From contig JAUSJG010000008.1 in the NCBI GenBank assembly GCA_030647555.1, forward strand, positions 193,467-257,466: DNA of 64,000 bases, written 5' to 3'. The DNA comes from a bacterium (GTDB lineage: Bacteria; Patescibacteriota; Andersenbacteria; UBA10190; CAIZMI01). Every line of letters starts with the position of its first letter. Position 1 is the first letter of the stretch. Below are positions 5,808-45,145 of this stretch, in pieces. The notes under the pieces were generated by a model that saw only the letters and a program-made list of their open reading frames with translations, made no database searches and was not told the origin of the DNA. Position numbers and translations under genes: made by a program.

Positions 5808-6917
5808 ATGGCTCGGATTGCCCTTGAGGCGCGTTCATTGTCGACACTCGGTGGTGGCGTGCGTACTTACACAAAAGAAGTAATTAGTAGGATTTTGAAG
5901 GCTGAATCAAGTGATGAATATATTATTTATCACGATAGCAAAAAGAATCTCAGCAGTTTTCCCGGTGCGGAAGAAAAAGTTGTTTCGGTAGGGCACCCAT
6001 TGTTTCGCATCGGTTGGGACTATTTTTTACTGCCACAGGCGTTGAAACGGGACAAGATTGATTTCATTCATTATTTTAAACCGGCGACTACGCCATTTAA
6101 AAAACCCGTCGCGATTGCGACAATGTACGATGTTATTCCTTTGCTTTATCCGGAAACGCAAACGGCAATTCAGTTGGCTTATTGGCGCAAACAGTTACCG
6201 CTTACGGCGAAAACCTGCGCGCATTTGATAACGATATCGGAATGTTCAAAACGCGACATTGTGAGACTGTTGCAGGTTGATCCGGCCAAGATAACAGTGA
6301 CGCCACTCGGGGTTGATTCCAAGTTTAAACCGGTGTCGGAGATCGAAAAAATAGCGATGCGCGAAAAATATCGCTTGCCTGAAAAATATATATTGTATCT
6401 TGGTACAATAGAACCGCGAAAAAATGTCGCGCGATTAATTCGAGCGTTTAATAAAGTGGCCGGTAATATTCCACACAGTTTAGTGTTGGCTGGAAAATGG
6501 GGCTGGAGTTATGAGGATGTAAAAGAGGAAATTGCCAAATCGCCATTTAAAGACAGAATCATTAGTTTGTCATATGTCGAGTCGGAGTATTTGCCGTCAC
6601 TTTGTAGCGCCGCCAGTATATTTGTTTTTCCAAGCTTATATGAAGGTTATGGCTTGCCGCCACTGGAGGCAATGGCATGCGGAACGCCGGTAATTACATC
6701 AAATGTTTCCAGTTTACCGGAAGTGGTAGGTGACGCCGCGTTGACTGTTGATCCTTTGGACGAAGATGCTTTAAGTAAAGCAATTGAACGATTGGCTTTG
6801 GATACTGCGTTACAAAACGAATTAAGTGAAAAAGGATTAGCAAGAGCAAAACAATTTAATTGGGACAAGACAGCAGAAATGACGTTGGGTGTATACAAGA
6901 AAGTATTTCAATTATGA
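5808..6917 (+). CDS. Glycosyltransferase family 4
   Basis: 'EGYGLPPLEAMACGTPVITSNVSSLPEVVGDAA' GT4 signature. Confidence 0.85.
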   Translation: MARIALEARSLSTLGGGVRTYTKEVISRILKAESSDEYIIYHDSKKNLSSFPGAEEKVVSVGHPLFRIGWDYFLLPQALKRDKIDFIHYFKPATTPFKKPVAIATMYDVIPLLYPETQTAIQLAYWRKQLPLTAKTCAHLITISECSKRDIVRLLQVDPAKITVTPLGVDSKFKPVSEIEKIAMREKYRLPEKYILYLGTIEPRKNVARLIRAFNKVAGNIPHSLVLAGKWGWSYEDVKEEIAKSPFKDRIISLSYVESEYLPSLCSAASIFVFPSLYEGYGLPPLEAMACGTPVITSNVSSLPEVVGDAALTVDPLDEDALSKAIERLALDTALQNELSEKGLARAKQFNWDKTAEMTLGVYKKVFQL

Positions 6918-8227
6918 AAATCGCTTTCCTTTCCTCGCGTTTTCCGCCTGATTTTATTGGTGGTGGGGAATGGTCGACAAAATATATTGCAGAAGGCCTG
7001 GTCGCACTTGGTCACGACGTGACTGTTATTTGTGGTGCGGAAGAAAATAAAGAGGAAATAATTAATGGCTTAAAAGTTAAACGCGTCAAAGCGTTGTTTG
7101 GTCTTTGGGACAAACCGCTTTTGGAAAAACGAAAAAGTAAAAAACTGGCGTTGGTTCTAAAGAAAGAGCTTGATGAAAAATTCGACATAGTTCACGCGCA
7201 TGATTTTCGCACCGCGCAAGCTTTAGCATTATTGAATTTGCCAAACGCGGTTGTAACAATTCGTGATTTCGCGCCAATCTGTGGGACAACTAATAATATG
7301 TTGTTTGACGGTCAATCTTGTAATGGTTGTACGTTGGCAAGTGTTTGTTTTAAGTGTCATCGTGTGCGCGAAGCGTCGTTTGCGCGGAAGCCGTTTAGAA
7401 TTTGGCAATACAAATTCAATTTGGCTTTTCGCAATGAAACATATCAAAATATTAAGAATCAAATTTATATCAGTGAGGCATTGCGTTCGCGCGTCGTATC
7501 ACGACTGGAATTGCCAAAAAATACGGCGGTCATTTCGAATCCAGTTAGTCCGGATTGGTTGCAACCGATCATGTCGCAATTCCCTCCTTTGTTAAATGGC
7601 GCGGCGGGTTCCCCGAAAACATCCAGTGAATGTTTGAGAGGGTGCCAGCGCCGGCACATCAGTGCCGTGCTGGGCGGGGGTGGATTCCGAAATAAAATTG
7701 TTTACGCTGGCACGGTTGATGACTACAAGGGAGTAAAAATTTTAATCGATGCGTTCGCAAAGTTTCAGAAAATAGAAAAAGATGTTGAGTTGATAATTAT
7801 TGGTAAGGGCAAAATCGCAGAATATCAAAAATACATCGCGCAAAATTGTATCGATATATCGATACAATTTGTCGGTAAAAAAACACAAGAAGAAGTGAGA
7901 GAATATTTTGACGAGGCGTTGGTAATTGTACAGCCGAGTATTTGGGAAGAGCCGTTTGGCAGAACGATTATCGAAGCCTACGCGCGCGGTCGCGCCGTTG
8001 TGGCGTCTAATGTTGGCGGAATTAAAGAAACGTTCAAAGAAGGCACCGGTTATTTGGTAAAACCCGGGAGTGTTGATGAATTGCATTTAGCTCTTAAAAA
8101 GATTGTGGAAAACAAAGAAGAAACCCAAAAAATGGGCGAAATCGGCAGAGCATATGTAGAACAAAATTTTACCGCGCAAATTGTTGCGCAGAAATATTTG
8201 GATTATTATAATCATGCGACCAAATAG
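6914..8227 (+). CDS. Glycosyltransferase family 4 carrying a Cys-rich insertion and an in-frame repeat element
   Basis: Start taken at the ATG overlapping the upstream TGA (ATGA) rather than the ORF-track 6860. 'FPPDFIGGGEW' N-terminus and 'EEPFGRTIIEAYARGRAVVASNVGGIKE' C-terminus. The C-X12-C-X2-C-X5-C-X2-C segment lies at 7281-7370 and the repeat at 7579-7692. Confidence 0.8.
   Translation: MKIAFLSSRFPPDFIGGGEWSTKYIAEGLVALGHDVTVICGAEENKEEIINGLKVKRVKALFGLWDKPLLEKRKSKKLALVLKKELDEKFDIVHAHDFRTAQALALLNLPNAVVTIRDFAPICGTTNNMLFDGQSCNGCTLASVCFKCHRVREASFARKPFRIWQYKFNLAFRNETYQNIKNQIYISEALRSRVVSRLELPKNTAVISNPVSPDWLQPIMSQFPPLLNGAAGSPKTSSECLRGCQRRHISAVLGGGGFRNKIVYAGTVDDYKGVKILIDAFAKFQKIEKDVELIIIGKGKIAEYQKYIAQNCIDISIQFVGKKTQEEVREYFDEALVIVQPSIWEEPFGRTIIEAYARGRAVVASNVGGIKETFKEGTGYLVKPGSVDELHLALKKIVENKEETQKMGEIGRAYVEQNFTAQIVAQKYLDYYNHATK
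7579..7692. repeat. Composite hairpin repeat family A/B, copy 1 (left end plus A core), in-frame inside the GT4 CDS
   Basis: Near-identical to 27530-27645, including ...GAGGGTGCCAGCGCCGGCACATCAGTGCCGTGCYGGGCGGGGGTGGATTC. It is 114 bp, i.e. 38 codons. Confidence 0.8.
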
Positions 8228-8656: not shown

Positions 8657-10048
8657 TTATCGATCCGCTTTTTCGAGCATAAAGAATCTAGAGAGGACTA
8701 ATTTGTTTTCGCGGGCCACGGTGGCGATTATTTCATCGCCGTTTTGAATTACTTCGGCTGTGCCATCGCCACGATTGGTGCTGATTAGATTATATATTAT
8801 GTGGCCATTTCTTTGATCTATATCGGCCATTTTCAAAATATCTTTTTCAAAGAAGAGGATTTGGTGTGAACCGGCGTACCACGTTGGTTTGCGAATCGCG
8901 GAGGAAAGGCGGGCAATGAGTTCTGGAGAAAAATGGTTGAGTGGAGAGCGTTTTTCGTGTAGGTTCATTACCCAAAGGTCGAATTCCGATTCTTGCCAGG
9001 CGATTTTGTCTCCCTCTGGTGACCAGCTGACCGATTCTGCGTGCGTGGTAACGTTGTGCCACACTCGCTCGCTGTTATCCCAAACAATTAAACTTTGTGT
9101 TGGTTGAACAAGAATGGCAATATCTCCCGTTGGCGAGTAGATAAGATTGCTGATTGAGTTTTTGCTGAGTGTGGGAGTTTCAATTTGGTCTTGCTCGTTG
9201 CCACTGGAAGAGTAGGTGCGGATCGTGTATTTTTCGGCGTTATTTTCCAGGATCGCAAACCCGTTGGCCGTAAAACTAATTGCTTCCGCGTCTTGTGAAA
9301 TTGTTTCGGTGCCCGAACTTTTAAGGGAAGTAATGATTGCTTTCTTGTTTTTTAAAATAATTAATTTTTCTTCGGTGAGTGTCGCGATCCAGCCGACCAA
9401 TTTTGATTCATCATCCGTTAGCGGGGTTGCGGTGCCGGTACTGATTTCAATAAGATAATGACGGCTGGATTTTCCGGTGGTTAGCGTGAGAGCAATAAAA
9501 TCCTCGTTCGGTGACCATAAAATGTTGGCCGATTCTTTTTTATTGATAGAAAGTTTAACAATTGTTCCCGTATCAGAGTATTTATTAATCGGAACAATCC
9601 TTAATTGATACCCGTTCTTAATTTGTTCAAAGATACCCAGCAGTTGCCTTTTGGGGGAAATATTAAAATTAACTACGTTTGAGCGCATTACATCTTCTTC
9701 AATGTTGAATGGAACAAGTCGTACATCGCGCGCGTCGGTAATCATTGTGCCAATGATGGGCAGGTTTTTCACCCAAGATCGATAACCATCTTTTTCCAAT
9801 TTAATGTTGTAGTTTCCCGGCAGTAGATTTTGAATCGAGGTTGGTGTTTTATTGGAAAGTTTTTTGTCATTGATTGTTATTGTCGCGCTATTGGGAATTG
9901 TGCGAATTAAAAATGTACCAACCGAAACCGAGTTGGGAGAGATGGGCGTGAATCGGTGACCCATAGAATAGCTGATTAGAAAGGGCGCAACCAAAAGAAA
10001 AACCAGCCAAGCAAGGATGTTGACAATGAGGCGAATGCGAGGCGTCAT
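8657..10048 (-). CDS. Membrane-anchored PEGA-domain / TolB-like β-propeller protein
   Basis: N-terminal TM segment. 'GNYNIKLEKDGYRSW' is PEGA-like. Repeated 'WSPNEDFIAL / YSPTGDIAIL / WSPEGDKIAW' blades. Confidence 0.45.
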   Translation of the reverse strand: MTPRIRLIVNILAWLVFLLVAPFLISYSMGHRFTPISPNSVSVGTFLIRTIPNSATITINDKKLSNKTPTSIQNLLPGNYNIKLEKDGYRSWVKNLPIIGTMITDARDVRLVPFNIEEDVMRSNVVNFNISPKRQLLGIFEQIKNGYQLRIVPINKYSDTGTIVKLSINKKESANILWSPNEDFIALTLTTGKSSRHYLIEISTGTATPLTDDESKLVGWIATLTEEKLIILKNKKAIITSLKSSGTETISQDAEAISFTANGFAILENNAEKYTIRTYSSSGNEQDQIETPTLSKNSISNLIYSPTGDIAILVQPTQSLIVWDNSERVWHNVTTHAESVSWSPEGDKIAWQESEFDLWVMNLHEKRSPLNHFSPELIARLSSAIRKPTWYAGSHQILFFEKDILKMADIDQRNGHIIYNLISTNRGDGTAEVIQNGDEIIATVARENKLVLSRFFMLEKADR

Positions 10049-10119: not shown

Positions 10120-10246
10120 AAAATCCCAATGACCAAATCTCAAATCCCAACAAAACTCTAAAACCTTAAATGACCAAAACTTTAGTTTTTGGGATTTAGG
10201 TAATTATGATTTTGTTGGACATTGGGGTTTGGTCATTGGGATTTAA
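10120..10246. repeat. Intergenic imperfect palindrome, family D, copy 1
   Basis: Left arm AAATCCCAATGACCAAATCTCAAATCCCAACAAAAC. Right arm GATTTTGTTGGACATTGGGGTTTGGTCATTGGGATTT. Confidence 0.8.
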
Positions 10247-10318
10247 AAATATTGTAAATTTTGATTGAAATTATAGTGCTTCAGTGCTACATTGAGCCAA
10301 CTAACAACTACTCTATAA

Positions 10319-13496: not shown

Positions 13497-13627
13497 GAAT
13501 TTTCAATTATCAATGACCAATTTTCAATCAATTATTAAATGGCTTAATTATCAAATAACGACGCCCCCATTGATAATTTAAGAATTGATCATTAATTGAT
13601 AATTGGTCATTGATAATTGAAAATTAG
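13497..13627. repeat. Intergenic palindromic element, family E, copy 1
   Basis: Perfect 25-bp inverted repeat AATTTTCAATTATCAATGACCAATT ... AATTGGTCATTGATAATTGAAAATT flanking a spacer of about 70 bp. Confidence 0.85.
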
Positions 13628-13706: not shown

Positions 13707-16313
13707 ATGACCGCACTATTTGACCGTTTTATGGGCCGTGATTCGGCAAAACTTGAGAAAATCAAAAAAATTGCCGATCAGGTTCTTGTTTTAGAACCAG
13801 AAATGAGGAAGCTTTCGGATACCGGTTTGCCGGAAAAATTGAACGAACTTAAGTCTGCCGCAAAGGAAAAGACGGTAGACGAGTTATTGCCGGAAACTTT
13901 CGCGTTGGTACGCGAAACGGCGCGACGTGTGCTTGGCGAACATCCATTTCCTGTGCAAGTAATGGGTGGCATTATTTTGCACCAAGGAAATATTTCGGAA
14001 ATGAAAACAGGTGAGGGAAAAACTCTGGTTTCAACAATGCCGATAGTTTTGAATGCTTTGTATGGCAAGGGCGTGCACTTGGTAACCGCCAATGAATATC
14101 TGGCAAAACGTGACGCGGATTGGATGGGAAAAATTTATCAGGCATTGGGTTTATCGGTTGGCGTAACGGCGCATGGTCAAACGTCTGCCGAAAAACGCGC
14201 CGCTTACGCTTCTGATATAACTTATGGAACAAACAACGAATTCGGTTTTGATTATCTGCGAGATAATATGGCCTATCGCGTCGAAGAAAAAGTGCAACGC
14301 GAGTTACAATACGCGATCGTTGATGAGGTAGACTCGATTTTGATTGATGAGGCACGTACGCCATTAATTATTTCGGCGCCGGATGAAGAGTCTAGTAAAC
14401 AGTACGCAGAATTTGCGCGTATCGCACCGCAATTGGAAAAAGAAAAACATTACGAAGTGGATGAGAAAGAGCGGGCGGTTACATTGACTGATGAAGGTAT
14501 TTCCCGTGTGGAAAAAATATTAGGGGTTGAAAACATATACGGTTCCGGTGAAGTAAAAGTTGTGCACCACTTGGAGCAAGCCTTACGGGCCATGGCGTTA
14601 TATAAGCGCGATGTGGATTATGTCGTCAAAGAAGGTGAAGTGATGATTGTGGATTCTTTTACCGGTCGATTAATGCCGGGACGTCGTTATTCCGAAGGGC
14701 TTCATCAAGCCATTGAAGCAAAAGAAGGCGTGAAGGTGCAACAAGAAAGTCGCACAATGGCGACGATTACGTTTCAAAATTATTTTCGTTTATACAAAAA
14801 GTTGGCTGGTATGACCGGTACGGCAAAAACTTCCGAAGAAGAGTTTCAAAAAGTTTATAACTTGGATGTTTTGGTTGTGCCAACCAATAAGAATTTAATT
14901 AGAAATGATCAGGCGGATAGGATTTATCGAACAGAATTGGGAAAGTTTAGGAACGTTGTAAAAGAAATCAAGGAACGTAATAAGGCCGGTCAGCCCGTGT
15001 TGGTTGGTACGGTTGCCATTGAAAAATCGGAGTTATTGAGCAATATGCTTATTCGCGAAGGAGTGAAGCATGAAGTACTGAATGCAAAAAACCATGCGCG
15101 TGAAGCGGAAATTGTGGCGAATGCCGGACAAAAAGATTCCGTGACGATTTCCACGAACATGGCCGGTCGCGGAACGGATATAAAACTTGGCGAGGGTGTG
15201 CGTGAAGTTGGTGGGTTGCACATTATCGGAACCGAACGACATGAGGCCCGTCGCATCGATAATCAGTTGCGTGGCCGTGCCGGACGTCAGGGTGACCCCG
15301 GTAGTTCGCAGTTCTTTATTTCGGCCGAAGATGATGTGATGCGTATTTTTGGCGCGGACAGAATGAAGAATTTGTTGACGCGGTTTAATATTCCGGAAGA
15401 CGAACCGATTGAAAGTCGCCTTGTATCGAAAGCGGTAGAGAGCGCGCAAGCACGGGTGGAAGGTTTCTACTTTGATTCCAGAAAACATGTTTTGGATTAC
15501 GACGATGTGATGAATAAACAACGTGAAGCATTTTATCGTCTGCGCAATAATGTTTTGGAAACACAAGGCGATAATTCGAAATTGCGTGGCATTGTTACCG
15601 ATCTACTGTCACAAACGCTTGATGAAGTAACCAACACAGCGCTGATTGCGCCGGCGCCGGTAGAAAGTGAAACAGAGCACAATGTTGAAGCAGAGGTTAA
15701 AAAAGCGATTGAAAGATTGATTAATCTTACGGACACCGAATGGCAGACAATTAAAGAAACAATTCCGGTTGATGCCACGAGTGGTATTTCCGATAAAACA
15801 AAGGAAGTACTACATGGTTTTGTAGAACGTCACTATGATTCACAGGAAGAGCGAACGAATAAAGATCCAATGTTCTACGATGTGATTCGCAGCATCGTTT
15901 TGCGGGCTTTGGATTTTCTTTGGACGGATCATTTGGATACGATGGAATATTTGCGCACGGGGATCGGTTTGCGTGGTTATGGACAGCGGGACCCGTTGGT
16001 TGAATATCGTCGCGAGGGTCATCAGTTATTCCAAAATCTCATGGCGACATTTCGACAGGAAGCGGCCGCGGCAATTTTCCATTTGGATATCCATCCGCAA
16101 GCGGCGCCGCGTGTAGAGGAAATGCAGCCGAAAAATATCACAATGGTACATCCTGACGCGGTTAAACCAAACGAAGCGCTTGTTCCTGCCGGTTCAGTTT
16201 CTACAAATAACGCTACCGAGCAGTTACCAGCTAAAAAGAAACCGACAATCGGTCGCAACGACCCCTGTTTTTGCGGATCAGGCAAAAAATATAAGAAGTG
16301 CCACGGGAAATAA
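13707..16313 (+). CDS. secA: Preprotein translocase ATPase SecA
   Basis: DEAD-motor motifs ('GEGKTLVSTMP', 'VDEVDSILIDEARTPLIIS') and the C-terminal Zn finger 'CFCGSGKKYKKCHG'. Confidence 0.95.
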   Translation: MTALFDRFMGRDSAKLEKIKKIADQVLVLEPEMRKLSDTGLPEKLNELKSAAKEKTVDELLPETFALVRETARRVLGEHPFPVQVMGGIILHQGNISEMKTGEGKTLVSTMPIVLNALYGKGVHLVTANEYLAKRDADWMGKIYQALGLSVGVTAHGQTSAEKRAAYASDITYGTNNEFGFDYLRDNMAYRVEEKVQRELQYAIVDEVDSILIDEARTPLIISAPDEESSKQYAEFARIAPQLEKEKHYEVDEKERAVTLTDEGISRVEKILGVENIYGSGEVKVVHHLEQALRAMALYKRDVDYVVKEGEVMIVDSFTGRLMPGRRYSEGLHQAIEAKEGVKVQQESRTMATITFQNYFRLYKKLAGMTGTAKTSEEEFQKVYNLDVLVVPTNKNLIRNDQADRIYRTELGKFRNVVKEIKERNKAGQPVLVGTVAIEKSELLSNMLIREGVKHEVLNAKNHAREAEIVANAGQKDSVTISTNMAGRGTDIKLGEGVREVGGLHIIGTERHEARRIDNQLRGRAGRQGDPGSSQFFISAEDDVMRIFGADRMKNLLTRFNIPEDEPIESRLVSKAVESAQARVEGFYFDSRKHVLDYDDVMNKQREAFYRLRNNVLETQGDNSKLRGIVTDLLSQTLDEVTNTALIAPAPVESETEHNVEAEVKKAIERLINLTDTEWQTIKETIPVDATSGISDKTKEVLHGFVERHYDSQEERTNKDPMFYDVIRSIVLRALDFLWTDHLDTMEYLRTGIGLRGYGQRDPLVEYRREGHQLFQNLMATFRQEAAAAIFHLDIHPQAAPRVEEMQPKNITMVHPDAVKPNEALVPAGSVSTNNATEQLPAKKKPTIGRNDPCFCGSGKKYKKCHGK

Positions 16314-16334
16314 TTTTGCCTATGCAAAATTATT

Positions 16335-16488
16335 AAATCCCAATATCCAAACCCCAAATCCCAACAAAATCCCAATTATTTAAATCTCAAACCCCATGTT
16401 TGGTCATTTGTGGAATTAGGGTTTTGTTGGACATTGCCTGCCGGCCATAGCTTTAGCGACGGCTGGGTCATTAGGTTTTGGGATTTTT
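16335..16488. repeat. Intergenic imperfect palindrome, family D, copy 2
   Basis: Arms AAATCCCAATATCCAAACCCCAAATCCCAACAAAATCCC ... GGTCATTAGGTTTTGGGATTTTT, with an internal GTTTTGTTGGACATTG shared with copy 1. Confidence 0.8.
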
Positions 16489-16528
16489 GTATTGGTTATT
16501 GATAATAAAATTGGTGTATAATGGCTGT

Positions 16529-16993
16529 ATGGTTGAAATAGCTAATCACATTCATGATTTAAAACGGGGGGTTGATTTTATCGGTGTTGGCGTGGTTTTT
16601 ATTTGTCATGATGGGCACGGTCGGGTTTTGTTGCACAAACGCAGTAATAAATGTCGTGATGAACATGGACGCTGGAACAACGGGGGTGGGGCGGTAGAAT
16701 TTGGAGAAGACCTGGACACGGCGGTTCGTCGTGAGGTAATGGAAGAATATGGAGTTGAGCCGATTGAATTGAAATATCTCGAGCATAAGAATGTCATTAG
16801 ACAAAATGGCGACCATCAAACGCATTGGGTGGCAATGCGTTATTCAGTGTTAGTAGATCCTGAAAAAGTGATTAATGGTGACCCCGAAAAGATTGATGAA
16901 TTTGGTTGGTTTACGCTTGATAATTTACCGACGCCCCTACATGGGGTTTTGGCAAATGAACTCGAATTGGTAAAAAAGGTTTTGGGGGTGTAA
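16529..16993 (+). CDS. NUDIX hydrolase
   Basis: Nudix box 'GGGAVEFGEDLDTAVRREVMEEYGV'. Start moved to the internal ATG (MVEIANH) because the upstream ATG at 16478 lies inside the family-D repeat. Confidence 0.75.
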   Translation: MVEIANHIHDLKRGVDFIGVGVVFICHDGHGRVLLHKRSNKCRDEHGRWNNGGGAVEFGEDLDTAVRREVMEEYGVEPIELKYLEHKNVIRQNGDHQTHWVAMRYSVLVDPEKVINGDPEKIDEFGWFTLDNLPTPLHGVLANELELVKKVLGV

Positions 16994-17070
16994 TAATAAA
17001 GGTATGATGTAAAAGATAATTTTCACTAACCAAACAAGTGATGATTATTTTTAATGAATGAAGAACAGAT

Positions 17071-18366
17071 ATGAATAAAATCGCATTACAAAAAAGTGAT
17101 CCCGAAGTTTACGCGGCAGTAGAGGGAGAGATGCAAAGACAGCGCGAAGGCGTTGAATTAATTGCGTCTGAAAATTATGTTTCTCCGGCGGTGTTGGAGG
17201 CGCTTGGTAGTCATCTTACAAATAAGTATGCGGAAGGATTCCCTGGAAAACGCTATTATGGTGGTCAGGAGTTTACGGATGCGGTCGAGACCCTGGCGAT
17301 TGAAAGGGCGAAAAAAATCTTCCGTTGTGATCACGCTAATGTGCAACCGCTTTCCGGTGCGCCGGCAAATATTGCCGTCTATTTTTCTTGGTTAGAGCCG
17401 GGTGATGCAATTATGGGAATGGATCTCTCGCATGGTGGTCATTTAACGCACGGTAGCCCAGTTACATACATGTCGAAGCTTTTTAACTTTGTGCGTTATA
17501 AGATGGGTGATCCTGAAACCGGTGCGATTGATTACGACGATATGTTAAAAGTGGCGAAACAGGAAAAAGTGAAAATTATTCTCGCCGGCTTTTCAGCCTA
17601 TCCGCGGGAACTCGATTACGCTAAAATTCGTGCGATTGCGGACGAAGTGGGCGCAATTGCGATGGCGGACGTGGCGCATGTGGCCGGTTTGATTGCGGCC
17701 GGTGAGTTAAAGAATCCGTTTGATTTTGGCTTTAATGTTGTTACAACAACAACCCACAAAACCTTGCGTGGTCCGCGTGGGGGAATGATTATGTCGCGTG
17801 GAAAAGTATCGAACCCATTGAAAGCTGTCGAAAAAACAGTGGAGAATTTGCCCACACTAATCGATCGCAGTGTTTTCCCGGGGTTTCAGGGTGGTCCACA
17901 CATGAATAATATCGCCGCGATTGCGGTGGCTTTGGGTGAAGCGATGCAACCGGAATATAAAGTTTATGCCAAGCAGGTGATTGCTAATGCCAAAACGATG
18001 GCGGCGAGGCTAATGGCTAATGGTTGCAAACTGGTTACCAATGGTACCGATAATCACATGATGGTAGTGGATTGTGTAAAGTCGTTTGGTTTGAATGGCA
18101 AAGAAGCCCAACATATTTTGGATGAAGTGGGGATCAGTGCCAGTAAAAGCACGGTGCCGGACGATACATTACCGCCATATTCACCGAGCGGGTTGCGTTT
18201 GGGTACGCCGGCCGTAACAACGCGTGGTATGAAGGCGCCGGAAATTGAAAAACTCACCGATTTTATGCTACAAGCGATTCGCGAACATGAAGATACGGCA
18301 AAAATGGCACAACTAAAAAATGAAGTGCGTGAGTTTTGTTTGTCGTTTCCGTTGCCGGGGATGTAA
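17071..18366 (+). CDS. glyA: Serine hydroxymethyltransferase
   Basis: 'SHLTNKYAEGFPGKRYYGGQEF' and 'TTTTHKTLRGPRGGMI' (PLP-binding Lys). Confidence 0.95.
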   Translation: MNKIALQKSDPEVYAAVEGEMQRQREGVELIASENYVSPAVLEALGSHLTNKYAEGFPGKRYYGGQEFTDAVETLAIERAKKIFRCDHANVQPLSGAPANIAVYFSWLEPGDAIMGMDLSHGGHLTHGSPVTYMSKLFNFVRYKMGDPETGAIDYDDMLKVAKQEKVKIILAGFSAYPRELDYAKIRAIADEVGAIAMADVAHVAGLIAAGELKNPFDFGFNVVTTTTHKTLRGPRGGMIMSRGKVSNPLKAVEKTVENLPTLIDRSVFPGFQGGPHMNNIAAIAVALGEAMQPEYKVYAKQVIANAKTMAARLMANGCKLVTNGTDNHMMVVDCVKSFGLNGKEAQHILDEVGISASKSTVPDDTLPPYSPSGLRLGTPAVTTRGMKAPEIEKLTDFMLQAIREHEDTAKMAQLKNEVREFCLSFPLPGM

Positions 18367-18369
18367 CGC

Positions 18370-18460
18370 AAGGTCGGACTTTGCGAAAAGGTCCGACCTT
18401 GATTGGTCGGCAAGAAGGATGCGACCAATGAGGGTCGGACCCCGCGAGGAGTCCGACCCT
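18370..18460 (+). repeat. Three consecutive perfect hairpins (GGTCGGAC family C) directly after the glyA stop
   Basis: Hairpin 1: AGGTCGGACTTT-GCG-AAAGGTCCGACCT. Hairpin 2: ATTGGTCG-N12-CGACCAAT. Hairpin 3: GGGTCGGAC-CCCGCGAGGA-GTCCGACCC. Related copies lie at 62151-62192 and 63169-63215. Confidence 0.75.
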
Positions 18461-18514
18461 GCTTACGGTTAAATATGTTGTTTAATTGTAATAATTCTGC
18501 TATAATATTTTACT

Positions 18515-19375
18515 ATGAATCCACAAATTCTCGACGGTCGAAAATTAGCTTCAAAAATCGATGAGCAATTAGCGCGTCGTATTGCCGTGCTTAAGACGGC
18601 CGGAACTACTCCCGGGCTGGCGATTTTGCTAAAAGAAGGAGATAAAGAGAGCGCAATTTTTGTTCGTCAAAAGGAAAAGAAATGTGAATTGCTGGGTATT
18701 GAGGTTGTTATTGAAACATTGCCCAAAGAAGGTTTTTTGGAGAATGCCACGAAGATTGTTGCAAGATGGAACGCAAATCCAAAACTGCATGGTATTGTGA
18801 TTCAGGTCCCGCGGGGTGATGCGAGTGAAATGCGCGAAGTGACAAAGATGGTGGATCCAAAAAAAGACGTGGATTGTTTGCATCCGGAAAATATTGGTTT
18901 GCTGTCTTTTAGTAAGCCAAGATTTTTACCCCCAACACCGGCCGGTATTCATCAGTTGTTAATCAAAAATAAAATAAATTTTGACGGTAAACACGTTGTA
19001 ATAATCGGTCGCGGAAATTTAGTGGGGAAGCCGTTGGCATTATTGCTTTTGCAAAAGAAAAAAGACGCTAATGCGACCGTGACCGTTTGTCATCGTCACA
19101 CAAAAGATTTAGCTCATCACACAAAACAAGCCGATATTTTAGTTGTGGCGATCGGACAAAAAGAATTTATCGGCAGGGAATACATTAATAAAGGATGTGT
19201 GTTGGTTGATGTTGGAATTCACAAGGTTGGTGATAGTTGGTTCGGTGATGTAAAACATTCGGAAGTTGACAGATTAGTTTCCGCGGTAACACCTGTGCCG
19301 GGTGGCGTTGGTCCGATGACGGTGACGATGCTGTTGTCGAATGTAATTTTATCAGCAGAGAATTATTTAGTTTAG
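18515..19375 (+). CDS. folD: Bifunctional methylenetetrahydrofolate dehydrogenase / methenyl-THF cyclohydrolase
   Basis: 'ILDGRKLA...', 'GLAILLKEGDKESAIFVRQKEK' and 'VIIGRGNLVGKPLALLL' motifs. Confidence 0.9.
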   Translation: MNPQILDGRKLASKIDEQLARRIAVLKTAGTTPGLAILLKEGDKESAIFVRQKEKKCELLGIEVVIETLPKEGFLENATKIVARWNANPKLHGIVIQVPRGDASEMREVTKMVDPKKDVDCLHPENIGLLSFSKPRFLPPTPAGIHQLLIKNKINFDGKHVVIIGRGNLVGKPLALLLLQKKKDANATVTVCHRHTKDLAHHTKQADILVVAIGQKEFIGREYINKGCVLVDVGIHKVGDSWFGDVKHSEVDRLVSAVTPVPGGVGPMTVTMLLSNVILSAENYLV

Positions 19376-19407
19376 TTTTCCATAAAAAGTTTTTGTGGGT
19401 CGCTGAT

Positions 19408-19445
19408 TTGTATATAGTATTTGGTATATAGTATATGGATTTAGT
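19408..19445. repeat. Short repeat H (TGTATATAGTATATGGATTTA), copy 1
   Basis: Matches 51787-51808. It is inverted at 51891-51918. Confidence 0.6.
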
Positions 19446-19493
19446 GGGCAATAATTTCGCTAGAATTTTTACGAATAGAAGTAGTTAAACATA

Positions 19494-19527
19494 AAAAAAC
19501 ACCGAGCAAGGGTTACTTGCTCGGTTG
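19494..19527 (-). terminator. Rho-independent terminator for the minus-strand GC-rich gene
   Basis: CACCGAGCAAG-GGTTA-CTTGCTCGGTG hairpin with a T7 run on the minus strand. Confidence 0.65.
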
Positions 19528-19559
19528 TTGGGGTTTCTGAAAGAACGTTTTTTGCGACT

Positions 19560-20513
19560 CTACTTAGCCGCGAACTTCTCGAACGTCTCCGACTCGGGGT
19601 CGAAGACCAGCGGATCTCCGTCCCACGCGGTCAGGAGAATTTTGCCGTCGGCCTGTTTTTCGGCGCCCCGCACCATCGTGCCTTTGATCGGGCACTCGAC
19701 GAAACGCCAGGCGTTTTCATCGTCGGGGACGAGTAGTCCGCCGAAGATTGATGCGCTGGAGTGAGCCACTCGAATGAATTGGTCCTCTACGCCGGAGATG
19801 TAGGCAGGCCCCTCTGAAACGACGCGTATAACGACGCGATCGCCAAACGGACGCTCGGTGTCGGGGGACCACTCCAAAATCTGGTGGGAGGACACGATAA
19901 AGGTTTTTCCTCCTACTTCGAAGATGTTGGAAATGTTCGGTCCGACTGGAAACATCCGATATTTTCCTCCGGACGGCGCAACGAACACATCATGGCGCAT
20001 TCCGCCGTGATTATGTCCTTCGCCGTTTGCGCTGAAACGGCCGTAGCATGACACAACGGCGAATGTGCCGGCGGATGTCGTGTACTCTTCACGCCGATTT
20101 TGTGACGGATGATATTGGATCACCTTCCCCTCATTTGTCATCTTCGCCTCTTCGTAGGCGATTCCGACTTCAGTGGAGAAGTCTTCAATTTCCATTTTGG
20201 CCTCGTCGGCATCACTTATTTTTCGCCAAGAGTCGGCGAGCGACACTTGGCTAGCCCCGAACTCAAGTTGGATGGCCGGTGGGTTCTCTTGCTCGTATTT
20301 CCGCGCAGCCTCCGCGAGCGCCGTGTAATCGATCATGGGCGCGTTCGGCGCGACCGCGACTTCCGCCACTTTCTTCGGCGGGACAACTTTGTCCATCTCG
20401 GCGATCTGCCATTTGAGCATCATGATCCCGGCGACCGACAGGGCGCCGACAGCCACGAGAAAGTTGAGAAACAAAACCGTGGCCACCAAATTCACCGACC
20501 GTTGCGAGTGCAT
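19560..20513 (-). CDS. GC-rich (about 58% GC), probably horizontally acquired membrane-anchored protein of unknown function
   Basis: Start set at the internal ATG (MHSQRSVNL...) with a GGAGG 9 nt upstream. One N-terminal TM helix, then a soluble domain of about 280 aa. Composition differs sharply from its neighbours. Confidence 0.55.
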   Translation of the reverse strand: MHSQRSVNLVATVLFLNFLVAVGALSVAGIMMLKWQIAEMDKVVPPKKVAEVAVAPNAPMIDYTALAEAARKYEQENPPAIQLEFGASQVSLADSWRKISDADEAKMEIEDFSTEVGIAYEEAKMTNEGKVIQYHPSQNRREEYTTSAGTFAVVSCYGRFSANGEGHNHGGMRHDVFVAPSGGKYRMFPVGPNISNIFEVGGKTFIVSSHQILEWSPDTERPFGDRVVIRVVSEGPAYISGVEDQFIRVAHSSASIFGGLLVPDDENAWRFVECPIKGTMVRGAEKQADGKILLTAWDGDPLVFDPESETFEKFAAK

Positions 20514-20683
20514 GTAGCACCTCCATTGGGACAGAAACACGAAACAGAAACAACGCAAATTGTGAAAAAACAAGATAGTATTATACACCCGCTGGTTGAA
20601 TTTGTCAAGCCTGCCTAGTGTAACCGCTTTTATGATTATTTTACGGGGTAGGCACAATTTACATTATCCTATATAATTTTTTT

Positions 20684-22015
20684 GTGACGACTAAGAACAA
20701 ATCACTGCTCGGGGTATTGGGGATTGTTTTGCTGACAGTTTTGGCAGTTTTGATCATTATTCCCAATGGTCGTATTCCGGTTGTTAACAAGATTTTTAAT
20801 AAGAGTTTTCGGCTTGGTTTAGATTTACAGGGTGGAACCCAGCTTGTTTATCATGCCGATTTGGCATCAATAAAATCCGACAATAAAACTGAATCATTGC
20901 AAGGTGTGCGTGATGTTATCGAACGCAGGGTAAATGCCTTTGGTGTTTCCGAACCGCGCGTGCAAATTACCGGTGGTATTTCGGAAGCACGCATTGTGGT
21001 GGAATTGGCGGGTATTAAAAATCCGGATGACGCGATAAAGCTTATCGGCGAAACACCAATTTTAGATTTTCGCGAAGAAGGACAAATTAATGCCGAGAAT
21101 ATTAAAACAGAAAATGGGGCGTTGCCGATTGTTTGGAAGCCGACGGAATTAACGGGTCGTAATTTAACCAATGCGGCGGTGGAATATAATCAAAATTCAA
21201 ACGCGCCGGAAATTTCTTTGCAATTCGACAGTCAAGGTGCAAAACTATTTGAAGATATTACGGGACGCAATGTTGGTAAGAGGGTGGGAATTTTCCTGGA
21301 CGGTTCGGTGTTAACCGCGCCGACGGTTCAAACAAAAATTTCCGATGGTCGCGCCGTTATCACCGGCGCCTACAAGGTCGATGAAGCGAAACAACTGGCC
21401 ACTCGTTTAAACGCGGGTGCTTTGCCTGTCGCTATCACGCTGATCAATCGCACTTCCGTTGGTCCAACGTTGGGGCGTGATTCACTTGGTCGCAGTATGG
21501 TGGCCGGTGTGATTGGACTTTTGACGATGATTATTTATATGCTTGTTTTGTATCGCTACCCGGGTCTTCTTGCCGCCTATGCATTGGTGCTATACGCATT
21601 ACTCAATCTTGCAGTCTACAAAATTTTGGGCGTTACCATGACCTTGGCCGGTATTGCAGGCTTTATTCTGTCGATTGGGATGGCTGTGGACGCGAATGTC
21701 TTGATTTTTGAACGACTCAAAGAAGAACTGCGCAATGGTCGGCAACTTATTCCCGGTGTGACCGGGGCGTTTACGGAGGCTTGGGCTTCGATCCGCGATT
21801 CGAACGTATCGAGTCTAATTACCTGCGCGCTTTTGTATATGCTTGGCTCCAGTATTGTTAAAGGTTTCGCGTTAACGCTGGCGATTGGTATTCTTATCAG
21901 TATGTTTTCCGCAATTTCCGTTACTCGGACACTTCTGATGGCGTCGTCAAACATGAAACTTTTTCACAATAAGAAAATTTATACCGACGGGTTAACCACG
22001 GAGGTTAAGAAGTAA
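20684..22015 (+). CDS. secD: Protein translocase subunit SecD
   Basis: 'LGLDLQGGTQLVY', the periplasmic domain and the C-terminal six-TM bundle. Confidence 0.9.
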   Translation: MTTKNKSLLGVLGIVLLTVLAVLIIIPNGRIPVVNKIFNKSFRLGLDLQGGTQLVYHADLASIKSDNKTESLQGVRDVIERRVNAFGVSEPRVQITGGISEARIVVELAGIKNPDDAIKLIGETPILDFREEGQINAENIKTENGALPIVWKPTELTGRNLTNAAVEYNQNSNAPEISLQFDSQGAKLFEDITGRNVGKRVGIFLDGSVLTAPTVQTKISDGRAVITGAYKVDEAKQLATRLNAGALPVAITLINRTSVGPTLGRDSLGRSMVAGVIGLLTMIIYMLVLYRYPGLLAAYALVLYALLNLAVYKILGVTMTLAGIAGFILSIGMAVDANVLIFERLKEELRNGRQLIPGVTGAFTEAWASIRDSNVSSLITCALLYMLGSSIVKGFALTLAIGILISMFSAISVTRTLLMASSNMKLFHNKKIYTDGLTTEVKK

Positions 22016-22914
22016 TGCTGCTTAAGTTTCTAAGTATTTCAAAAACAGCGCGTTATTGGTTTAGTTTTTCCAGTGTTTTGATTGTGTTGAGTTTTGTTGC
22101 GATGGGTGTTTGGGGGTTGCGTCCCGGGATCGATTTTGTCGGTGGCAGTATTATGGAAGTGCGTGGGCAAAACGCGACGGTTGTCTCTATTAGAACGGCC
22201 CTTGAGAAAAATAACCAAAAAAGCATTGAAGTGCAGTCCACCGGCAACAATAGCGTTCAGGTGAGGATGCAACAATTGGATAACGATCAGCACACGAAAC
22301 TTTTGGCGGATTTGTTGAAGGAATTTCCCGGGTTAGAAGAACTGCGTTTTGACAGTGTTGGCCCAATCTTTAGCAAGGACTTGGTTTTCAAATCTATTTT
22401 GGCAATCGTGTTGTCTTCGTTTGGAATTCTTATTTATCTGGCGTTCGTATTTAATAAATCCAGCGCGATTGTTTCTTCGTGGGCATTTGGTATTTTCGCT
22501 GTAGTTGCCCTTATTCATGATGTAGTGATTATTGCCGGTTTCTTCGCGGTTTATGCGCACTATTTCAGTGCCTCGGCGGACTCATTGTTTGTTTCCGCTA
22601 TTTTGACGGTGATCGGCTTTTCGGTGCACGACACCATTGTTATTTATAATCGGGTGAAATCCAATTTAAGGATATTGCGGTTGCCGTTTGGCGAATTAGT
22701 TGATTTGAGTGTATTGGAAACATTTACGCGTTCCGTAAATACATCGGTAACAACGTTATTGGTTTTGCTTTCCTTGTTGTTCTTCGGTGGTAGCACTATT
22801 CGACCATTTGTCGCGACACTCTGTTTTGGTATTATTTTGGGTTCCTATTCCTCGGTCTTCGTAGCCGCACCACTTTTGGTTTGGTGGCAGGAACGGAACA
22901 AAAAGAAAAAATAA
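22015..22914 (+). CDS. secF: Protein translocase subunit SecF
   Basis: ATGA-coupled to secD. 'GIDFVGGSIMEV' and 'HDVVIIAGFFAV' match the SecF topology. Confidence 0.9.
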   Translation: MLLKFLSISKTARYWFSFSSVLIVLSFVAMGVWGLRPGIDFVGGSIMEVRGQNATVVSIRTALEKNNQKSIEVQSTGNNSVQVRMQQLDNDQHTKLLADLLKEFPGLEELRFDSVGPIFSKDLVFKSILAIVLSSFGILIYLAFVFNKSSAIVSSWAFGIFAVVALIHDVVIIAGFFAVYAHYFSASADSLFVSAILTVIGFSVHDTIVIYNRVKSNLRILRLPFGELVDLSVLETFTRSVNTSVTTLLVLLSLLFFGGSTIRPFVATLCFGIILGSYSSVFVAAPLLVWWQERNKKKK

Positions 22915-22971
22915 TTGGTTATTCGGTATTCTGTTTAGTAATTGGTGGGCGTGTTTGGCTAGAAAGCTTTT

Positions 22972-23096
22972 AAACCCCAAATCCTAAACACCAATGTCCA
23001 ACAAAATCCTAATTATTTAAATCACAAAAAATACGTTTTAGTCATTAGGTTTTTTTGATTTTTGTTGGGATTTGGTCATTGGGATTTGGGTTTTTA
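22972..23096. repeat. Intergenic imperfect palindrome, family D, copy 3
   Basis: AAACCCCAAATCCTAAACACCAATGTCCAACAAAATCC ... TTTTTGTTGGGATTTGGTCATTGGGATTTGGG. Confidence 0.8.
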
Positions 23097-23137
23097 TATT
23101 GCTTGGTTTCTCGTTATGAGTCTGTTAATGTGTCATT

Positions 23138-24100
23138 ATGCCAATTATACAAAACAAGATTATCGGCAATTCCGCCCTCGTCGATTTTCTAAATAAGCTT
23201 GTCGATGCCGACAAAATGCCCACTTCCGTCCTCTTGGCCGGTCCGGCAATGGTTGGTAAGTCGACGATATTGGATAGTGTTGCTCAACGGATTATTTGTG
23301 TTGATGGAACAATTTGCGGTCATTGTTCCGGTTGTACAATCGGAACAATAAACCATCCGGATGTTTTGCGTCTTGGTGCTTCCGAAGAAGAATCGTTGCG
23401 AAAGGGAATAAGCAATCTTTTGAAACGTATTCACCAAAAACCGGTGCTTGGGAAAAAACTGATTGTTTTTCTGGAAAATATTGATGAATTTTATTGGGCG
23501 TCATCACCGCTTTTATTAAAAGCGTTGGAAGACGCGCCAAGTTTTGTAATCTTCTTCTTAACCGCGGAAAATTTGGAAGCGGTGCTTCCCACAATTCGGT
23601 CTCGTTCGATGGTGCGGTATGTTGGCCCGATTGGCGCTATTGCTTTAAAAGAGCAACTTTCTCGACAGTTTGTCGCAAGGGGTAAACAGGTTCCGCCGAG
23701 TTCTCAAACTGCCGTCAATGATGTAGATTTAATAGACCAGATAGTTTCGCTGGCCGGCGGTCGGCCGGGTCTGGCGATAAGGCTTTTTGAAGATAGCGTG
23801 CTACGAGAGAAATATGGGTCTTGGCGCGCTAACTTGCTGAATATGCCAAATCTGACCGTTGGTGAAAGGTCGCAATTTGCGGAAACGATCGATAAGGCCG
23901 GAGAGGGAAAGGAAGTAATGAATTTATTACAAAGTTTGCTAAGAGAGCGTTTAGCGGAAGATGCTATCGTGAAAAAAGTGCGCATCGGCAGTTTTAAGAA
24001 TTTTTTAGGAACCATTAGGCGCAGTCGCGAGGCCACGGCAATGTTTAAGGCCAATATTCCTCAAAGATTGGTTCTGGAATACGTTTTCTTTAATCAATAA
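23138..24100 (+). CDS. holB: DNA polymerase III δ' subunit
   Basis: 'LLAGPAMVGKST', Zn module 'CGHCSGC', and 'TIRSRS' sensor. Confidence 0.75.
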   Translation: MPIIQNKIIGNSALVDFLNKLVDADKMPTSVLLAGPAMVGKSTILDSVAQRIICVDGTICGHCSGCTIGTINHPDVLRLGASEEESLRKGISNLLKRIHQKPVLGKKLIVFLENIDEFYWASSPLLLKALEDAPSFVIFFLTAENLEAVLPTIRSRSMVRYVGPIGAIALKEQLSRQFVARGKQVPPSSQTAVNDVDLIDQIVSLAGGRPGLAIRLFEDSVLREKYGSWRANLLNMPNLTVGERSQFAETIDKAGEGKEVMNLLQSLLRERLAEDAIVKKVRIGSFKNFLGTIRRSREATAMFKANIPQRLVLEYVFFNQ

Positions 24101-24119
24101 AAAATAATAGTGTCAAATT

Positions 24120-24668
24120 ATGAAAAACATAAAGTTATCTCCAAATTTTGAGCCGGCTGTCAGTCATCTGACAGAACAGTTGCGTGGTATTCGTACCGGT
24201 CGTGCGTCAACCGGCTTAGTGGAGGGGGTAACTGTCGATTATTATGGAACACAAACGCGTCTAAAAGATATGGCGTCTATCACCACCCCCGGCGCGCAAC
24301 TTATTCAAATTGAACCATGGGACAAAAATGCGGTTAGCAATGTTGTAAAAGCGATTGAAATTTCTTCCTTGGGCCTTAATCCAACCGTTGCCGGTTCAAT
24401 TATTCGTTTAAATTTACCGCAACTTACGGAAGATCGAAGAAAAGAGTTGGTAAAAGTTGTTGGCAAATATGTTGAAGAAGCAAAAATCGCCGTCAGGAAT
24501 GTGCGGGAAAAATTATTGCGTGAAATTAAAAACCAATTGGATGCCAAAGACCTTTCAGAGGATGAACATCGTGGCGAAAAAGATACGATTCAAAAAGAAG
24601 TGAATGATGCGTTGCTTGTAATTGACGAAGAAGGTAAGGAAAAGGAAGCTGAACTTCTTTCTGTCTAA
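24120..24668 (+). CDS. frr: Ribosome recycling factor
   Basis: 'ASITTPGAQLIQIEPWDKN' and 'IRLNLPQLTEDRRKELVK'. Confidence 0.9.
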   Translation: MKNIKLSPNFEPAVSHLTEQLRGIRTGRASTGLVEGVTVDYYGTQTRLKDMASITTPGAQLIQIEPWDKNAVSNVVKAIEISSLGLNPTVAGSIIRLNLPQLTEDRRKELVKVVGKYVEEAKIAVRNVREKLLREIKNQLDAKDLSEDEHRGEKDTIQKEVNDALLVIDEEGKEKEAELLSV

Positions 24669-24670
24669 CA

Positions 24671-27529: not shown

Positions 27530-27720
27530 CATTCCCTCCTTTATCAAATGGCGCGGCGGATGCCCCGAGAACATCCGGTGGATGTTCGAGAGGGTGCCAG
27601 CGCCGGCACATCAGTGCCGTGCCGGGCGGGGGTGGATTCTGAAAAGAATTCGTAATAATTACTTAATCCCTCCCATCCTCCCTTTGGTAAAGGGAGGAGA
27701 CGCGGTGATTTCGCAGAATT
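27530..27720. repeat. Full-length composite hairpin repeat (A core plus B hairpin arm), intergenic copy
   Basis: TTCCCTCCTTT...GTGCCAGCGCCGGCAC...GGGGTGGATTC...TTAATCCCTCCCATCCTCCCTTTGGTAAAGGGAGGAGACG. It is partly shared with 7579-7692 and 48121-48242. Confidence 0.8.
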
Positions 27721-45133: not shown

Positions 45134-45145
45134 AGTGTTAAACCT

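Follow-up and report, generated by a model that had tools for sequence, protein, structure and literature searches.

Dispersed heptamer-repeat hairpins in the intergenic spacers of a CPR-type bacterium, with a possible role at transcript boundaries

Heptanucleotide repeats have been known in cyanobacteria since 1990. Among these STRR (short tandemly repeated repetitive) sequences, Mazel et al. reportedly distinguished in 1990 STRR1, with the unit CCCCA(A/G)T, and STRR2, with the unit TT(G/T)GTCA. Here, eight elements or arms built from 7-nt units (seven full hairpins plus one half-element) are described in a 64-kb stretch of contig JAUSJG010000008.1, hereafter the window. They belong to at least four word families, D (three copies), E (two), F (one and a half) and G (one). 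The nearest named SecA lineages of the host are the candidate phyla radiation (CPR) groups Andersenbacteria, Moranbacteria and Kazan (54–58% identity), which would place it near CPR/Patescibacteria; no close SecA relative was found among GTDB species representatives (best identity 56%). The STRR2 unit would equal the core unit TTGGTCA of the present elements, and STRR1 would be close to their units AAATCCC/AAACCCC.

Heptanucleotide units are the most over-represented long simple sequence repeats (long SSRs, LSSRs) in prokaryotes; their distribution over the phylogeny is patchy, and polymerase slippage has been put forward as their origin (Mrazek 2007, cited through PMC4679880 and PMC4692102). 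The GGGAATC repeats of Xanthomonas form ∼185 dispersed chromosomal arrays per genome, of which 89–93% are intergenic, at a mean distance of 28 nt from the upstream open reading frame (ORF) (Rehm et al. 2015, PMC4692102). Most of these arrays have four units, 70–75 inverted pairs per genome are able to form stem-loops, none are found on plasmids, related species differ in the length and sequence of the arrays, and the starts or ends of transcripts often fall within them (PMC4692102). Arrays of GGGGA(T/C)T heptamers are found in Nostoc (PMC4692102), and according to a preprint such repeats influence regulation at recF and recO of Nostoc (bioRxiv 10.1101/2022.06.06.494920). The 7-bp STRRs of cyanobacteria form intergenic hairpins, for example between hupS and hupL, for which transcript stability, pausing and termination have been proposed as roles (PMC2670836). 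Direct repeats of the heptamer TAACTGA, which occur in Beggiatoaceae, Cyanobacteria and Bacteroidetes with no evident transfer mechanism, lie a few nucleotides upstream of start codons, include a single indirect repeat among 170 sets and are proposed to be sites of a translational regulator (PMC4679880). REPINs, which are hairpin-forming doublets of repetitive extragenic palindromic (REP) sequences, are multi-copy inverted doublets outside genes that fold into ∼100-nt hairpins in single-stranded DNA or mRNA, decay to single arms and vary between strains (PMC3116915).

The elements in the window share with the Xanthomonas and Nostoc repeats the 7-nt unit, which there too may be heterogeneous, the intergenic location close past a stop codon, the inverted pairing and the number of about four units, and the D units GGGATTT and GGGGTTT are one to two bases from those of Xanthomonas and Nostoc. 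Unlike in those genera, however, the host is a small-genome CPR-type bacterium, G-rich units are mixed with TTGGTCA-type ones, families E, F and G are G-poor, and the hairpins are longer composites with a conserved non-periodic centre. Strict STRRs belong to heterocystous cyanobacteria, whereas this genome is non-cyanobacterial; LSSR arrays are homogeneous by definition, whereas the present ones are heterogeneous, mirrored as inverted arms and copied as whole elements. With the TAACTGA repeats they share an intergenic heptamer word common to distant phyla, yet TAACTGA forms direct repeats of one word. Being non-coding, extragenic, multi-copy inverted doublets with decayed single arms, they resemble REPINs and miniature inverted-repeat transposable elements (MITEs), but they have no REP mini-palindrome, no GTAG/CGTC head and no consistent target-site duplication, and their arms are periodic and of variable length. 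Their position past a stop codon, the A-rich 5′ and T-rich 3′ ends of their units (AAAT...ATTT) and their sameness on both strands recall bidirectional intrinsic terminators, from which they differ in having AT-rich stems of 45–60 bp instead of GC-rich stems of 5–15 bp. Judged by sequence, the elements are members of the STRR/long-SSR class of heptanucleotide-repeat hairpins, a known kind, for which a CPR-type bacterium would be a new host lineage; a literature search returned no report of heptamer-repeat elements in CPR bacteria or of these exact word strings. We favour, with a probability of roughly 0.55, the reading that they are dispersed non-autonomous hairpin repeats with a putative role at transcript boundaries.

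An earlier note on this DNA, made from the letters alone, had named six loci (five plus one related) as imperfect inverted repeats in intergenic DNA. All six were recovered where it had placed them; the list was incomplete, lacking F1, the F half-element and two weak arrays. The elements and arrays are as follows, none of them being assigned to a strand.
10120-10246, no strand: D1, heptamer-repeat hairpin; 5′ arm 10121-10181, 3′ arm 10184-10244
13497-13627, no strand: E1, heptamer-repeat hairpin; 5′ arm 13498-13538, 3′ arm 13585-13625
16335-16506, no strand: D2, a D copy that looks decayed, 21 nt past the stop codon of secA
19406-19446, no strand: F half-element, a single arm of GTATATA/GGTATAT units, period 7/14 in Tandem Repeats Finder (TRF)
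22972-23096, no strand: D3, D-family hairpin between secF and holB
33803-33941, no strand: G, hairpin built from AATTTGA/TTGAAAT, with arms at 33807-33857 and 33891-33941
51774-51918, no strand: F1, newly found hairpin of TGTATAT/GGTATTT units; arms 51775-51808 and 51885-51918
58983-59123, no strand: E2, E-family hairpin between an SLT-like gene and a UvrD/PD-(D/E)XK helicase-nuclease gene
22896-22948, no strand: weak degenerate 7-nt periodic stretch, 19/28 matches in the lag-7 scan
57112-57151, no strand: weak direct array of ∼5 units AATCATn, TRF score 32, 17/28 matches at lag 7

The arms repeat with a unit of 7 nt. TRF reported period 7 in every arm, with 4–5 heterogeneous units per arm at 65–85% matches. 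When sliding windows with at least 17 of 28 matches were counted over the 4,969 nt of intergenic gaps, 141 were found at lag 7 (out of 175 lag-7 windows in all), compared with 4.7±7.4 in first-order Markov resamples; in the same gaps lag 9 gave none, lag 14 gave 57 and any other lag at most 25. The 9-mer proposed in the earlier note as the unit is thus mistaken; for example, its word TTGGGATTT consists of one heptamer, TTGGGAT, and the two bases that open the following unit.

A shared core of families D and E had also been proposed. The exact core TTGGTCATTG/CAATGACCAA occurs five times in 64 kb, against 0.14 expected from dinucleotide shuffles (∼35-fold), and all occurrences (10127 −, 10229 +, 13511 −, 13603 + and 23072 +) are within elements; with up to one mismatch there are 18 matches against 6.3 expected, 13 of the 18 inside elements. 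The enrichment is therefore real, but the exact core is confined to both arms of D1, both arms of E1 and the right arm of D3, while D2 and E2 carry one-mismatch versions (TTGGCCATTG and TTGGTCATTT in E2) and families F and G are without it. Similarly, the string GATTTTGTTGGACATTG that was thought to run through family D is exact in D1 (10208, +) and D3 (22992, reverse complement), but D2 has only a related 13-mer, TTGTTGGACATTG. With a core far commoner than chance, and with related elements elsewhere (see below), the view that these are not random AT-rich palindromes holds: they are repeat families with common words.

The full elements are AT-rich imperfect inverted repeats of ∼125–170 nt, and all seven fold to near end-to-end hairpins at −27 to −55 kcal mol−1 (z-scores −2.7 to −9.6), with none of 200 shuffles folding as well for any of the seven. 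RNA folding was strongest for D1 (−55.4 kcal mol−1; z −9.2) and E1 (−45.6 kcal mol−1; z −9.6), followed by D3 (−38.8 kcal mol−1; z −4.7), E2 (−36.1 kcal mol−1; z −6.2) and G (−30.5 kcal mol−1; z −4.5), with z-scores of −2.7 for D2 and −2.8 for F1. The 50–80-nt spacers that the arms had been thought to enclose are thus mostly paired. In D1 an inverted-repeat scan found arms of 61 nt that are 75% complementary and only 2 nt apart, with units of the AAATCCC/AATGACC type in the 5′ arm and TTGGGAT/TTGGTCA/TTGGACA in the 3′ arm. The arms of E1 (41 nt, 90% complementary) have the same word order in both, the 5′ arm beginning AATTTTC, AATTATC, AATGACC and the 3′ arm reading TTGATAA, TTGGTCA, TTGATAA, TTGAAAA; over 36 nt they are 92% identical to the arms of E2. 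Those of F1 (34 nt, 82% complementary) enclose a 76-nt centre, and its left arm is 92% identical over 38 nt to the F half-element, which has no inverted partner. D2 is poorly paired, its 3′ arm being split by a 29-nt GC-rich insertion (16437-16465) that is unique within the window, with the periodic part extending to ∼16506. Both D2 and the unpartnered F arm at 19406 look like decayed copies. No element matches Rfam 15 at gathering score, the sole match in the window being a tRNA; at lax E-values the elements resemble plant microRNA precursor hairpins (20–47 bits against cut-offs of 90–200 bits), which is a generic likeness of long hairpins.

The elements are found in spacers that separate transcription units, past a stop codon and 5′ of the next gene's own conserved promoter. 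The window (GC 39–48%, with strong positive GC skew and mostly co-oriented genes) encodes glycosyltransferases, two MreB paralogues, MreC, PBP2, SecA, SecD, SecF, SHMT, FolD, HolB, DnaX, RRF, aminoacyl-tRNA synthetases, GreA and UvrD-type helicases. Eleven intergenic gaps exceed 200 nt if the 866-nt stretch behind the last ORF is included, and seven of them hold a full heptamer hairpin. The earlier description, that the elements sit upstream of + strand genes, is correct yet gives half the picture, as six of the seven start 0–62 nt past the stop codon of the preceding co-oriented gene and the distance from element to next start codon varies from 26 to 171 nt. E1, for example, begins directly 3′ of the stop codon of a glycosyltransferase gene, G is located 3′ of the PBP2 gene and 5′ of greA, with an arm order opposite to that of D and E, and F1 is flanked by a GtrA-like gene and dnaX. 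The exception is D1, which sits between divergent genes, a PEGA-domain gene (−) and mreB (+). As for the single arms, the F half-element follows a folD-like gene in a convergent gap, and the periodic stretch 22896-22948 precedes D3 and spans the secF stop codon (22912-22914), so that its first part is inside the secF ORF; no partner arm was found for it. The array 57112-57151 is just 5′ of a PIN-domain gene, and its membership in the group is doubtful.

The promoters next to two elements were compared with those of relatives. The first is a context feature outside the element:
10265-10293, + strand: mreB promoter, TTGAAA-17-TACATT, 19 nt downstream of D1
The same block is found in three relatives (L081, L083 and L085), all without D1, and a TTGnnn-17-CAnnnT block downstream of E1, the secA promoter, is likewise conserved in relatives without E1. 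Since both promoters are kept in element-free relatives, the elements do not supply them. No canonical terminator was seen by eye in the heptamer-bearing gaps, whereas several other gaps contain either canonical GC-stem plus T-run terminators (∼483-510, 34628-34656, 50446-50476 and, on the minus strand, 19501-19525) or GC-rich palindromes. A terminator scan listed none of the elements, and a T-run follows only D2 and D3, five of the seven having none. Thus, of the terminator plus promoter cassette suggested earlier, the post-stop position fits a hairpin at transcript ends, but the mreB and secA promoters lie downstream and are conserved without the elements. In the same spacers, within 16517-16531, the in-frame ATG of the NUDIX gene (16529) is 6 nt past a TATAAT box, and within 59127-59144 the ATG of the UvrD-like gene (59142) is 9 nt past TATACT; from these distances, the two mRNAs may be leaderless or nearly so.

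Elements are gained, lost or replaced between close relatives. Relatives were found with SecA identities of 93, 91, 89, 82, 81, 78, 76 and 74%, one of them on a contig of 1.02 Mb, and in five of the relatives synteny around secA is kept while the elements are not. Three (L083, L085 and L086; 76–82% SecA identity) have essentially no lag-7 signal. At 93% identity, L081 is without D1 and has a different hairpin, of TTAGATA/TTAGTAA units, exactly at the E1 site; at 91%, L082 has a short direct array after secA only, and its secF-holB gap, where the window has D3, is just 12 nt long. At the D1 and E1 sites of L085 (81%) there are GC-rich palindromic inserts (5939-6259, 321 nt, and 9456-10000, 545 nt). 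Different lineages thus fill the same spacers with different repeat types. Absent or replaced in relatives, the elements are dispensable and evolve much faster than their flanks.

Furthermore, copying affects whole elements. D1, D2 and D3 align over their full length (74% column identity), and D2 and D3 have in common a 35-nt non-periodic centre, CCAACAAAATCC(C/T)AATTATTTAAATC(T/A)CAAA, with two mismatches. Outside the window, D1 is alignable with metagenome contigs L126 (80% identity over 137 nt) and L104, the latter being 79% identical to D3 over 105 nt; in both contigs the flanks are unrelated, and L126 additionally holds a G-type array. The common non-periodic centre and the full-length homologues with unrelated flanks indicate that the D copies derive from one element and are not expansions in place. 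In a short-read (Logan) assembly of the same genome, the 2,868-bp contig with SecA (L088) ends inside the right arm of E1 and inside D2 (window positions ∼13597 and ∼16462, respectively). This is repeat-like behaviour, by which the elements fragment assemblies of the lineage.

Related arrays recur in other bacteria. Period-7 arrays, often as inverted pairs and with varied word sets, are found beside secA in Hydrogenedentota, a Firmicute, Holophagae, Dadabacteria, Peribacteria and Sungiibacteriota. For the D words, metagenomes were scanned with the exact 21-mer GGGRTTTGGTCATTGGGATTT from the D1/D3 arm, for which about one chance match was roughly estimated, the size of the collection not being known. 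At least 120 metagenome stretches contained it, and the matches listed, to which all figures on these loci refer, comprise 76 non-redundant loci on contigs of 0.34–0.70 GC; on contigs of 60% GC or more, the element part itself has 47% GC. One locus is near Vicinamibacterales (Acidobacteriota) by its flanking PQQ dehydrogenase (64–65% identity), and another near Candidatus Portnoybacteria by its flanking DnaE (68% identity). A few matches are coding sequence, such as signal peptides in contigs L102 and L157. The 21-mer had no match in 2.9 million viral contigs, and blastn of D1 against plasmid and phage records, with the low-complexity filter on, gave none either.

Among the matches listed, the words TTGGGAT and TTGGTCA recur on contigs of 34–70% GC from other phyla, and the units of the D word set fit RRNNWTT (for example, GGGATTT and GGTCATT). 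Extra units of the 3′ arm fit G(.86) G(.90) G/T A/C T/A T(.98) T(.99), and the arms have 3–10 units, mostly four. The inverted partner of the 21-mer was upstream in 42 and downstream in 4 of 71 evaluable loci; an ungapped scan at a threshold of 20/35 gave 42 upstream against 1 downstream (hand tally from scores). This bias implies that either strand reads 5′-(AAWNNYY)n - loop - (RRNNWTT)n-3′. Calls of gene context around the hits were mostly tandem (16/3/4 and 8/3/1 tandem/convergent/divergent), but they were too noisy and were not used. Perfect homogeneous arrays were also seen, namely (GGCTAAC)x8 and (CAGTAGC)x14 in L055, an Anaerosolibacter metagenome-assembled genome (8931-9009 and 18915-19033), and (AATGACC AAATCCC)n with more than eight units in contig L124 (70% GC); other phyla thus have homogeneous, slippage-type arrays alongside the heterogeneous hairpins.

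Under the favoured reading, replication slippage in 7-nt steps would lengthen and shorten the arrays, inverted copying or template switching would keep the arms mirrored, and whole elements would spread as non-autonomous hairpin repeats, REPIN- or MITE-like, through a putative mobilising enzyme. Transcription from either strand would then yield a hairpin of 45–60 bp that may mark or insulate transcript ends, by pausing, weak termination or protection of 3′ ends from exonucleases, and would be neither operator nor promoter. Any such function would be dispensable, because relatives live without the elements. Candidate reasons for the arm-order bias are that an A/C-rich 5′ arm would not misfold before its partner is made, that it may provide a C-rich, G-poor site resembling those for Rho loading, or that the A...T polarity may mimic bidirectional terminators.

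Several results weigh against this reading. In five D-family copies none of 30 pairs showed compensatory base changes and the covariation term was positive; with D2 poorly paired as well, these copies give no sign of selection for pairing. The arm order of F1 and G is opposite. With AT-rich stems and a T-run after D2 and D3 only, the elements are not canonical intrinsic terminators, and between the divergent genes around D1 there is no transcript to end. As regards mobility, no transposase was found in the 64 kb, where families of transposases, integrases and reverse transcriptases as well as RAYT/Y1 transposases were sought among the ORFs scanned and genes at 13707-27513 were assigned only by synteny; an imperfect direct repeat AAAAAT(T)ATT flanks D1 (AAAAATTATT / AAAAATATT), but no target-site duplication was found at D2, D3, E1 or E2 and none is consistent overall. 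The cross-phylum hits were chosen by an exact 21-mer, so the query itself accounts for part of the conservation seen in the words and the 3′ arm. Finally, the step from these hairpins to a function at transcript boundaries is a weak one.

A wider version of the argument is tentative and, in our estimate, unlikely: the D type would be one pan-bacterial, chromosome-only class of heptad hairpins, with an RRNNWTT vocabulary, a preference for arms of ∼4 units and an arm order that is fixed and the same on both strands, kept by a conserved machine that writes or reads 7-nt steps. It would span CPR bacteria to Acidobacteriota, and the machine may be an RNase, the replisome, or RNA polymerase acting together with Nus factors or Rho. 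About as improbable is that the elements are purely selfish or neutral mobile hairpin repeats of the REPIN or MITE kind, copied by a transposase encoded elsewhere and without host function. Full-length homologous copies with unrelated flanks, orthologous sites that are empty in close relatives, the breaks of the short-read assembly at elements and the lack of covariation all suit it, as does the presence of well-paired copies (D1, E1) beside decayed ones (D2, F half-element), as expected for differing ages and as REPIN singlets have been interpreted, namely as decayed doublets (PMC3116915). On the other hand, neither a transposase nor a related insertion sequence with the same ends was found in the window, there is no consistent target-site duplication, the arms have neither a GTAG/CGTC REP head nor an internal REP-like mini-palindrome, and their variable numbers of 7-nt units are unlike fixed terminal inverted repeats. 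Moreover, among the matches listed the same words occur across phyla of 34–70% GC, yet not in the 2.9 million viral contigs or the plasmid and phage records, a pattern that a single mobile element spreading horizontally would not easily produce. That the arrays are instead a by-product of mutation in place, through local polymerase slippage and template switching with neither dispersal nor function, is less probable again. It would account for the 7-nt period common to all arrays, whose word sets in other phyla are many and unrelated, for the differing arrays at the same site in close relatives and for the variation from 3 to 10 units per arm among the matches listed, and it accords with slippage as hypothesised for heptamers (Mrazek 2007, cited through PMC4679880 and PMC4692102). 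Independent slippage, however, cannot yield the 35-nt non-periodic centre of D2 and D3 or the same word order over ∼125 nt in D1, L126 and L104; it does not predict the 42:4 bias in arm order among the matches listed, and heterogeneous units suppress slippage.

Two readings in which the elements act on duplex DNA are more doubtful still. The idea of the earlier note, a common binding protein, would make them an operator, a centromere-like site or a nucleoid-protein array, bound cooperatively at 7-bp heptads. Contiguous heptads serve ribbon-helix-helix proteins, such as omega of pSM19035, as binding sites, and the elements offer such heptads with G (.86), G (.90), T (.98) and T (.99) at positions 1, 2, 6 and 7 among the matches listed; D1, in addition, precedes the −35 box of mreB by 19 nt in a region of divergent promoters. 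In Nostoc, heptamer repeats modulate the access of NtcA and LexA, with a binding partner postulated (bioRxiv 10.1101/2022.06.06.494920). Yet the same words are found in unrelated phyla, relatives share the genes and the conserved promoters without the element, four word families are present in one genome with no core in F or G, most copies follow stop codons directly and are at no fixed distance from a promoter (26–171 nt to the start codon), and no candidate regulator gene is adjacent; a genome-specific binding protein is thereby disfavoured, and we regard such an array as quite improbable. The least credible of all is a cassette in which the hairpin ends the upstream gene and its outermost TTGnnnn unit serves as the −35 box of the downstream one. 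A consensus scan did place a −35 box in the last units of D2 (TTGGGA-17-GATAAT) and D3 (TGGTCA-16-TATATT), TTGATA-16-TATACT can be read in E2, and D3 separates secF and holB, which are 12 nt apart in a relative. But promoter-like matches in the region number 25 against 25.0 expected in shuffles, F1, G and E1 have no convincing match, and neither the mreB nor the secA promoter depends on an element. The preferred reading remains that of dispersed hairpin repeats with a putative role at the boundaries of transcripts.

Some other candidates were rejected. G-quadruplexes or i-motifs, as proposed for Xanthomonas, do not fit, as the D arms have at most three scattered GGG tracts and E, F and G none. 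As regards integron attC sites, GTCCAAC in D3 and GTTGGAC in D1 and D2 look by eye like the R''/R' core sites (RYYYAAC ... GTTRRRY), but these are missing from E, F and G, the elements are flanked by housekeeping genes in conserved synteny that have promoters of their own, and a scan of the window ORFs turned up no integrase. Phase-variable SSRs are unlikely given the heterogeneous units, the housekeeping neighbours and arrays that are identical in the same contig across samples. A replication origin is at odds with the monotonic GC skew across the window, a REP/REPIN unit with periodic arms that have no internal palindrome or GTAG head, and an intrinsic terminator, with its short GC-rich stem and U-tract, with AT-rich stems of 45–60 bp.

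Further repeats were observed in the window. A 123-nt GC-rich repeat (89% identity) is present inside a glycosyltransferase ORF (7579-7701, in ORF 6860-8227) and in the proS-mreB2 intergenic gap (27531-27653). The GC-rich repeat CCCGCCC..GAGGCTCGCCCAGATGGGCGGC has three copies (30327-30386, 35394-35430 and 46814-46873), two of them inside long ORFs (a PIF1-type helicase gene and ORF 46540-48249), which suggests, from the sequence, either that insertions are tolerated in coding sequence or that the ORFs are mis-called. A 52-nt repeat (90% identity; 27651-27702 and 48180-48231) ends in the hairpin CCTCCCTTTGGTAAAGGGAGG, and a similar CCCCTC...GAGGGG hairpin follows the UvrD-like gene (62100-62125). 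GC-rich nested hairpins on GGTCCGACC/GGTCGGACC (18367-18465 and 63165-63200), with sub-threshold Rfam matches to the small RNAs CC2171 and Xoo2 (31.7 and 25.8 bits), look like a second, GC-rich family of palindromic repeats. A 41-nt promoter-like repeat, TTGCAA-17-TATAAT (85% identity), is 5′ of a Bro-N domain gene in one copy and 5′ of the next region in the other (62238-62278 and 63250-63290), and at the end of the window (63872-63993) a 61-nt unit with internal ATTCCTGA(A/C) sub-repeats is perfectly duplicated in tandem. At 45083-45136, a perfect 24-nt inverted repeat ACTTTAAGGACTGTCCCTAAAGTA with a 6-nt loop reaches across the stop codon of the gene for a DegT-type aminotransferase, close ahead of a FemAB-family gene; the 386-nt gap after the latter holds a possible small ORF of ∼75 codons (46238-46465), hydrophobic and with GGAGG upstream.

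Heptamer repeats here fill most of the long intergenic spacers of a reduced, CPR-type genome, one of ∼1 Mb with little non-coding DNA, and it is whole elements, not units alone, that are copied. The most interesting lead is the recurrence of the same words and arm order in distant phyla at 34–70% GC; they did not turn up in the viral contigs and the plasmid and phage records searched. If the elements are purely selfish, they would represent a mobile repeat of unusually broad host range. If the pan-bacterial reading is true, it would give one general answer to the 35-year-old question of what STRR-type repeats are for. And if the hairpins do have a role at transcript boundaries, gene finding and the prediction of operons and terminators in uncultured lineages should take such elements into account.

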